From Opitutales bacterium (GTDB lineage Bacteria > Verrucomicrobiota > Verrucomicrobiia > Opitutales > UBA2995): a stretch of 64,000 nt of DNA. Positions 62,920 to 63,552 of the stretch are shown one piece after another. The stretch's first letter is position 1; each line of letters begins with the position of its first letter. The stretch spans positions 578,693-642,692 of the forward strand of contig OZ252288.1 of assembly GCA_965250065.1 (NCBI GenBank), given 5' to 3'. The notes beneath the pieces are model-generated. The model was given only the letters and a program-made list of their open reading frames with translations. It had not been told where the DNA came from and did no database searches. Position numbers and translations under genes: made by a program.

Positions 62920-63552
62920 TCATTCTTTAAAGAAATCCCACCTCCAGGGCCAATCTGCGGGTACCTTCACCAATCCTGCCCGAACCGGATTCTGACTTAT
63001 ATATTCAGCTTTAGCATCCAGACTTTTCCAACTTCGGATTCGATGGTCAAAAAAACCACGCTGCCAACGTATCTTGCAATGCTTGCTCAGATAACTTTTC
63101 CATGATGTGATGAAACGTTCCATGGACGTGACATTAGAAATGCGACTAGCCCGCATGTCTCACAAATTTCGTGGCGAGCGAATGAAGATCCAGTGCTGGT
63201 GCGGGTTTCGAGACGATGCGCGGGTGAAGCTGGGTCGACACCCTGCAAAGTCGCGCCATCCAACGAGGGCCGCACCAGTGCGGATATTCCGGCGCGCAGT
63301 AGAAAGTTTGTGAGACATGCGGGCTAGTGCATGAATGTGGTCCGGCATCACTAAAATTAGCCTGCAAAACCAATGTTCGTTTTCTTGATAGTACTTTGCA
63401 GATTTCAAAATGAACGTCCCAGTTTCGTTTTTAGCAAATTGATTTAGTCCGCGTGGTTCCCCATTGACCGTAATGAAGAAAAGATCGGAATCTGGAACCC
63501 AGTTCGGAGGGGTGTGGTGGAGTTGTTTTCTCTGGGGAAGGCTGCCTTTCAT
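62920..63552 (-). pseudogene. REP-associated tyrosine transposase (RAYT, Y1/HUH, IS200-like) interrupted by a family A element
   Basis: The N-terminal half ends at 63328 with ...DLFFITVN...LILVMPDHIHA (HUH motif). The C-terminal half starts at 63145 with ...IRWQRGFFDHRIR...AEYISQNPVRAGLVKVPADWPW (Tyr motif). Both halves are in the same frame and an in-frame stop lies inside the insert. Confidence 0.8.
63146..63327. mobile_element. Family A foldback element, full copy 3 (inside the RAYT gene)
   Basis: 182 bp with perfect 21-nt TIRs CTAGCCCGCATGTCTCACAAA. The core is homologous to 15373-15553 and 31006-31186. Confidence 0.88.

Follow-up and report, generated by a model that had tools for sequence, protein, structure and literature searches.

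What split a REP-associated tyrosine transposase (RAYT; REP, repetitive extragenic palindrome) gene on an Opitutales chromosome, and was the insert the enzyme's own cargo? The question arises at positions 62920-63552 (minus strand) of a 64,000-nucleotide stretch of contig OZ252288.1 from an Opitutales bacterium (assembly GCA_965250065.1), which we refer to as the window. An initial annotation of the window had described two adjacent minus-strand open reading frames (ORFs) there as together making up a RAYT, interrupted by a member of one of the window's own foldback repeat families, here called family A, and had offered three readings: a previously undescribed RAYT-repeat system, a self-inflicted insertion, or competition between elements. 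Our analysis indicates that a non-autonomous, 174-bp MITE (miniature inverted-repeat transposable element) of the IS1380 type very probably inactivated this chromosomal RAYT gene, and did so recently; the intact gene specifies an HUH/Tyr single-strand DNA nuclease-transposase of 151 aa. The family A MITE is not a substrate of the RAYT, and the event is an ordinary gene disruption by an unrelated transposon.

The interrupted gene and its empty allele

The two ORFs carry the motif sets that had been assigned to them. The first (63160-63552; 130 aa; MKGSLPQRKQL...LFFITVNGEPRG...LILVMPDHIHA, followed by element sequence) contains LFFITVN...VMPDHIHA, and the second (62920-63156; 78 aa; ...RFITSWKSYLSKHCKIRWQRGFFDHRIRSWKSLDAKAEYISQNPVRAGLVKVPADWPWRWDFFKE) contains WQRGFFDHRIR...YISQNPVRAGLV...DWPW. 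The native N-terminal part, placed by the ORF list, the match to an intact relative and an alignment of 26 homologs, occupies 63328-63552 on the minus strand (codons 1-75, ending ...VMPDHIHA, with the HUH motif at H72-I-H74). The C-terminal part, placed by the ORF list and the comparison with the ortholog, occupies 62920-63145 on the same strand and runs from the rest of codon 77 to the stop codon, with WQRGFFDH and the catalytic-Tyr motif YISQNPVRAGLV. The gene is thus interrupted two codons past the HUH motif.

When the two halves were joined, the product scored 84.2 bits against NF047646, the NCBIfam equivalog model for REP-associated tyrosine transposases, and so passed the cut-off of 80, with residues 22-143 aligned to model positions 9-145 of 146. 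The joined halves scored 15.7 bits against Pfam Y1_Tnp (PF01797), under the gathering score of 23; several RAYT homologs bear precomputed PF01797 hits, and this general IS200-like model is weak on the present RAYT clade. A protein search returned 122 homologs, mostly of the Verrucomicrobiota/Opitutales type, several of which are named RayT or REP-associated tyrosine transposase in their source records. The intact ortholog, P0001, has a single match in the PDB, E. coli TnpArep (4ER8; 33 bits, E = 4.8e-7, residues 64-145). In the alignment with 4ER8_A the HUH motif (HiH/HmH), WQ..F..H.IR and the Tyr motif (YIsqNPV/YIyiNPV; YI..NPV..G.V) correspond, up to DWP, and Tyr125 of the RAYT falls on the YIyiNPV motif of 4ER8. 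Moreover, M69-P70-D71-H72, H74, W104, Q105, F109-D110-H111, R114, Y125, N129 and P130 are invariant among the 26 aligned homologs. Judged by its sequence, then, the interrupted gene is a RAYT, as had been proposed. (Two homologs, P0077 and P0078, were considered as parallel disruptions and rejected; they are gene-call truncations of apparently full-length genes, and no MITE is present there.)

The gene for the ortholog P0001 (151 aa, 97% identical) lies on L001, an ENA metagenome contig of 4.6 kb. L001 is collinear with window positions 61458-64000 at 97.6-99.3% identity; its RAYT gene has the same sulfatase gene on one side and, on the other, the same 626-aa gene. This contig holds the empty site that the initial annotation had proposed to look for in related genomes. 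It reads CATGCA CTAG TCGCATTTCCTAATG (that is, CATGCA-CTAG-TCGCATTTCCT), with a single CTAG, and the minus strand of the window reads CATGCA CTAG (174 bp) CTAG TCGCATTTC-TAATG (that is, CATGCA-CTAG-(174 bp)-CTAG-TCGCATTTCT). The native sequence at the site, ...HIHALVAFPNVTSMERF..., agrees with the homologs (P0002 has HLHLLVAFPQTTGMKQF).

This comparison also corrects the boundaries of the element. The stretch 63146-63327 starts with CTAGCCCGCATGTCTCACAAA and closes with the exact reverse complement of that sequence, so that the perfect 21-nt inverted ends of the annotated 182-bp repeat, like its two other full copies in the window, hold up; however, because L001 has CTAG only once, the outer 4 of the 21 nt are a target-site duplication and lie outside the element. 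The element proper is 174 bp long (63150-63323), lacks coding capacity, forms a long hairpin and has 17-nt inverted repeats at 63150-63166 and 63307-63323 (CCCGCATGTCTCACAAA). One CTAG of the duplication, at 63324-63327, belongs to native codons 76/77 (CTA G..), and the other is at 63146-63149.

Removing 178 bp is the correct reversal of the insertion, yet the frame stays broken because of a second lesion. A 1-bp deletion at 63137 on the minus strand (CC to C; TTTCT where the intact ortholog has TTTCCT), located 9 nt downstream of the duplication, shifts the frame independently of the MITE. The insertion, suspected earlier of being not perfectly clean on account of the frame, is therefore clean after all. 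With the 178 bp taken away, the only differences between the window and L001 genes over 456 nt are this deletion and one substitution, P36L, at which the Leu of the window agrees with P0002; the N-terminal part is otherwise the same as L001 2679-2903. A single substitution relative to the intact allele argues that the inactivation is very recent.

The deletion is also the reason why the two ORFs lie, as had been noted, in one frame (63552 - 63156 = 396). The stop inside the insert, likewise noted earlier, is a TGA in the distal inverted end, which closes the first ORF after 76 native and 54 element-encoded residues. Since the insertion in codons 76/77 falls between the HUH motif and Tyr125, neither fragment holds a complete active site; the comparison with the ortholog thus bears out the claim that the RAYT was split and inactivated by a member of a window repeat family. 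(An inverted end of the MITE supplies an ATG, at 63154-63156, that shares the reading frame of the RAYT's C-terminal half only through the 63137 deletion; with the original CC, the frame from this ATG would stop at once, at TCC TAA. The in-frame ATG is probably a coincidence.)

Two independent lesions are present, and one sequence cannot give the order in which they arose. It may be, then, that the RAYT was already dead from the 1-bp frameshift and that the MITE landed later in a pseudogene, as a passenger rather than as the cause. We regard this order of events as unlikely, if a good deal short of far-fetched: besides the lesions there is only the one substitution, hence both events are very recent. 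Moreover, the outcome is the same either way, namely a RAYT-null allele with an IS1380-type MITE.

Repeats can cause misassembly, and a 22-nt sequence just upstream of the insertion, common to the filled and empty alleles, had no match in JGI metagenome contigs. A repeat misplaced into the gene by the assembler is nonetheless an explanation to which we give next to no credence. A misjoin would not yield a perfect 4-bp duplication of a target that is single in the ortholog, and the truncated 130-aa product (P0004) is recorded in NCBI and ENA from a contig of 4.54 Mb. (Among the 120 homologs listed, this source contig, of 4,537,733 bp, is represented by P0004 only, which is indirect evidence for one RAYT copy in the genome.)

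Family A and IS1380-family transposons

Family A has three full copies in the window (63146-63327, 15373-15553 and 31006-31186, duplications included), with a mean column identity of 86%, as well as partial or variant copies, and is among the commonest repeats there. The second copy (15377-15549, 173 bp) is bounded by a TTAA duplication (15373-15376 and 15550-15553) and the third (31010-31182, 173 bp) by a CTAG duplication (31006-31009 and 31183-31186). The end motif of the family had no match in 100 shuffles of the window. The 182 nt at the RAYT locus are predicted to fold into one long hairpin of -62.8 kcal/mol, as against -30.8 +/- 3.5 in shuffles (z = -9.2). Family A elements are short (173-174 bp), non-coding and multicopy, and they lack an Rfam match (no Rfam family matched in the region).

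The terminus CCCGCATNTCTCACAAA was scanned for in one genome per species and was found in at least 118 stretches (L002-L119), so that per-genome copy numbers are lower bounds; the statements on this terminus below concern the matches listed. Sources were several Opitutales/Opitutia metagenome-assembled genomes (MAGs), Victivallales/Lentisphaerae, Sericytochromatia, Acidobacteriota, Spirochaetota and many cyanobacteria. The 17-nt end is accordingly conserved over Verrucomicrobiota, Lentisphaerota, Acidobacteriota, Spirochaetota, Sericytochromatia and Cyanobacteria. At least five Opitutales MAGs contain copies of family A that share 84-94% identity with those of the window.

The sequences that flank these ends reveal how the elements insert. 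In matches from the Planctomycetes-Verrucomicrobia-Chlamydiae group, the four bases outside CCCGCATNTCTCACAAA are YTAR. Taking the window and the loci together, identical direct 4-bp flanks bordered 30 of 52 inverted end pairs, and 17 of these 30 were non-palindromic. Such non-palindromic flanks are direct and not inverted (TTAG...TTAG in L010, CTAA...CTAA in L052, TTAG...TTAG in L016) and therefore reflect target duplication and not an extended inverted repeat. The 30 reconstructed targets have the consensus Y-T-A-R; with hairpin or REP/RAYT targeting in mind, a consensus outside YTAR was sought in them and none was found. (One Opitutia MAG, at L061 3800-3837, contains a 38-bp 'minimal' element that is barely more than two 17-nt inverted ends, with a TTAA duplication.)

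Full-length transposons share these ends. An insertion sequence (IS) of 1756 bp in an Opitutales MAG (L083 2439-4194), flanked by a TTAG duplication, has a 478-aa ORF that scores 352 bits against NF033539, the model for IS1380-family transposases. A Microcystis IS of 1998 bp (L088 5250-7247), flanked by an ATAT duplication, has a 494-aa ORF that scores 405.7 bits against NF033539 and 527 bits against PF13701. The terminus CCCGCAT(G/T)TCTCACAAA recurs at the right end of the L083 IS and, with one mismatch at one of them, at both ends of the L088 IS; over their first 20 nt, the L083 right end and the end of the 31006 copy are identical. Moreover, the MAG that carries the L083 IS, CBDCNU01, also carries a family A copy 93% identical to the 31006 copy (L068), with further or partial copies in L108 and L118. 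Because its ends match those of IS1380-family DDE transposons, and because related copies have direct 4-bp YTAR duplications, we conclude that family A is a MITE of the IS1380 type and not a REP or a REPIN (a hairpin-forming REP doublet). (Note that an IS5-family origin, considered in view of the YTAR target, was dropped, since the full-length elements with these ends encode IS1380-family transposases. In cyanobacteria CCCGCATNTCTCACAAA bounds both full IS1380-family elements and MITEs of 102-171 bp, and the 4-bp duplications there are AT-rich (ATAT, TAAA, TTAT), not YTAR.)

The anatomy of the element suggests how the gene would have been hit. An IS1380-family DDE transposase whose gene lies elsewhere in the genome would bind the 17-nt inverted ends CCCGCATGTCTCACAAA in trans and, by means of cuts staggered by 4 nt, insert the element at a YTAR tetranucleotide; gap repair would then duplicate the target, here the CTAG of codons 76/77. 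Insertion at this position parts the HUH metal-binding motif (H72 and H74) from the catalytic Tyr125. The 1-bp deletion 9 nt downstream adds a frameshift, either as a later decay step or second hit, or as a by-product of the insertion event itself.

The same features bear on the proposal that family A is REPIN-like and mobilised by the present RAYT, whose gene would then have been hit by its own cargo in a new RAYT-repeat system. Family A is a long foldback, ranks among the commonest repeats of the window, sits inside a RAYT gene and has related mosaic repeats in the window with CGGTAG motifs adjoining the same terminus, all of which would fit such a system. We nevertheless consider it highly improbable. 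Family A gives 4-bp direct YTAR target duplications, and transposition by the HUH/Y1 route, as in IS200/IS605 and REP elements, is not known to produce any; its ends are those of an IS1380-family DDE element; and it is 174 bp long without a GTAG-headed hairpin at its ends, whereas REPs and REPINs consist of palindromic units of 20-40 nt that bear a GTAG or CGTC tag. Furthermore, the intact ortholog in L001 has no family A copy beside its RAYT gene.

Several points weigh against an IS1380-type MITE as the agent of inactivation. The occurrence of a 1-bp deletion so near the insertion, in a gene with one other difference, is left unexplained. A tblastn search of the 64-kb window gave no IS1380 transposase gene. 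Family A resembles the Opitutales IS over about 20 terminal nucleotides only, and so it is not a simple deletion derivative of that IS. Part of the basis for the assignment is general background, the IS1380 family being listed in ISfinder with 4-5-bp duplications and 'CC' ends. Finally, L001 could in principle represent a precise excision rather than the ancestral state. IS1380 transposases are relatives that serve as piggyBac's prokaryotic outgroup (PMC10813416), and piggyBac integrates at TTAA and excises seamlessly (PMC7351741), which is why L001 might be a revertant. The ancestral-empty reading is simpler, since the homologs have LVAFP and the L001 frame is intact, and the element is mobile either way.

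REP hairpins of the clade and other repeats in the window

We inspected the loci of six RAYT homologs of 46-59% identity (P0002, P0005, P0045, P0021, P0078 and P0077). In all six (L120-L124 and L126), short GGTAGGG(C)-headed hairpins, with GGTAGGGC as the head, lie on both sides of the RAYT gene. The L122 locus, from Cerasicoccus fimbriatus, has one copy 77 nt upstream (plus strand) and the same sequence 49 nt downstream (minus strand); L123 has copies 44 nt upstream (plus) and 57 nt downstream (minus); L120 and L121 have head-to-head doublet arrays on both sides; and L124 and L126 likewise have copies on both sides. Such an arrangement is consistent with the statement in PMC5581495 that RAYT genes are almost always flanked by REPINs. 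The hairpins are GTAG-tagged, a REP class described in PMC3733652.

The window contains one such hairpin next to the RAYT gene, at 62874-62900 (plus strand; GGTAG-GGCAACAGCC-TCC-GGCTGTGCC, in full GGTAGGGCAACAGCCTCCGGCTGTGCC). It lies 19 nt past the RAYT stop codon, and the GGTAG at its head overlaps the stop codon of the sulfatase gene (AGG TAG). Its predicted fold is the same in dot-bracket form as that of an L121 REP, and its conservation in L001 is 100%. On the 5' side of the RAYT gene in the window there is no GGTAGGGC hairpin, and neither flank is repeated elsewhere within the window. A strict scan of the window for perfect hairpins preceded by GTAG gave 7 cases, as against 3.0 +/- 1.6 in shuffles, too weak an excess to claim that REPs are enriched in the 64 kb; what speaks for REPs in the window is the match of head and fold to the homolog loci, not enrichment. 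The GGTAGGGC-headed hairpins are thus likely to be the cognate REP type of the present RAYT clade, to judge from their sequence and placement. That a repeat other than family A brackets the RAYTs of the clade in six of six loci, with a further copy at 62874 in the window, also counts against the gene having been struck by its own cargo.

Family A has also struck a REP elsewhere in the window. Within a REP doublet at 30967-31193, a GTAG-tagged hairpin on the minus strand (30967-30987) stands head-to-head with the plus-strand sequence GGTAGGGCAAGAGCTTC|CTAG|CTCTGCC; the latter is a GGTAGGGC-headed REP (30989-31005 plus 31187-31193) into which the family A copy at 31010-31182 has inserted. Without the MITE, this REP folds like the one at 62874. 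Two of the three full MITE copies of the window have thus struck the RAYT/REP system, and the target logo suggests that both hits arose by chance at YTAR sites. The YTAR duplications, the IS1380 ends and the clade's own GGTAGGGC REPs are at odds with both the RAYT-repeat system built on family A and the self-inflicted insertion that had been offered as readings. Competition between elements comes closest of the three, if in a weak sense: an unrelated transposon did hit the gene, but the target consensus was just YTAR and nothing pointed to specific targeting.

The window also contains variants of family A. Elements at 8448-8805 (minus), 33358-33531 (minus) and 40119-40226 (plus) combine a CCCGCATGTCTCAC terminus with the left half of family A and have two to three tandem units of 24-25 nt (GATGTCGCGTTCGCTCGGTAG) right behind that terminus. 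The element at 8448-8805 ends in another terminus, GTGTGGTGTCCCAGAAAT, which also follows CTAG at 9970, 33572-33637 and 48348. These variant elements form a mosaic of chimeric MITEs. In the window the hexamer CGGTAG is present 59 times, where shuffles have 16.2 +/- 4.1; about half of these copies are at the 3' end of short units in intergenic repeat modules (...GCTCGGTAG, ...CCTCGGTAG, ...GGCTCGGTAG), and it is found directly against the IS1380-type terminus and in the tandem 24-25-nt units. It is conceivable, if rather improbable, that the mosaic intergenic repeats are hybrid substrates for both the RAYT and the IS1380 transposase.

Other repeats were recorded as well. The intergenic region 3400-3960 is dense in hairpins; it contains GAACCCCAACGGGGTTC twice and a 53-nt inverted pair (3620-3672/3788-3840), and two hairpins there are followed by a CTAC tag (GAACTGCTTTGCAGTTCATGCTACC and GCGGCTTAAAGCCGCTCCTAC) and are candidate GTAG-type REPs. 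Short tandem arrays lie in intergenic repeat clusters (41075-41153 and 58076-58135), with GAGATGCT at an 8-nt period and CCTAATT at a 7-nt period, and related stretches of the 'CTGAGATGCTGAG' type occur at 42803, 48273, 51019 and 55485. Dispersed duplications of 90-98% identity (1-607/27773-28382, 3076-3243/28663-28830 and 39611-39910/50211-50510) are unrelated to the RAYT insertion; the first two pairs lie in coding regions and are probably paralogous genes.

Comparison with known systems

The RAYT belongs to a known family. It resembles the RAYT/TnpA-REP proteins represented by E. coli YafM, 4ER8 and NF047646 in its length (about 150 aa), its HUH motif and its Tyr motif YIxxNPVxxG at the same spacing, and its homologs are bracketed by inverted GTAG-tagged hairpin REPs in the classical RAYT arrangement. 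It differs in that the Verrucomicrobia/Opitutales clade is only distantly related to E. coli TnpArep, the sole PDB match, and in that the window copy is a pseudogene with a single flanking REP. A clade with the GGTAGGGC REP head was not found described in the literature searched.

The insert is likewise of a known kind, a MITE that shares its ends with an IS, with an unusual partner family. Like the Nezha/ISNpu3 MITEs of cyanobacteria (PMC3184786), family A is short and non-coding, has the terminal inverted repeats of a full-length IS, direct target duplications and a stable foldback, and is found as filled and empty sites in close relatives; it differs in its partner, IS1380 (DDE, piggyBac-related), and in its 4-bp YTAR duplication. 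With the IS1380 family and the piggyBac superfamily it shares ends that begin CCC and a 4-bp duplication of a TTAA-like tetranucleotide; for IS1247, of the IS1380 family, PMC3281130 gives inverted repeats of 16/13 nt and a 5-bp duplication. The autonomous relatives in L083 and L088 encode NF033539/PF13701 transposases, whereas family A is without a transposase. In the accessible parts of the literature naming both IS1380 and MITEs, no IS1380-type MITE was found described, and IS1380 goes unmentioned in a review of prokaryotic MITEs from 2024; neither result proves novelty.

These findings leave the current understanding of the mechanism of RAYT or IS1380 systems unchanged. What they add is a family of IS1380-type MITEs with a YTAR target in Opitutales, which we did not find described in the literature searched, and a 17-nt MITE end whose conservation reaches from Verrucomicrobia and Lentisphaerae as far as Acidobacteriota and cyanobacteria. 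They also document cleanly a natural and very recent RAYT knock-out, for which the intact allele is available in a relative that is 97-99% identical. The pair formed by the RAYT-intact allele of L001 and the RAYT-null allele of the window would constitute a natural experiment on whether GGTAGGGC REPs need the RAYT in order to persist.

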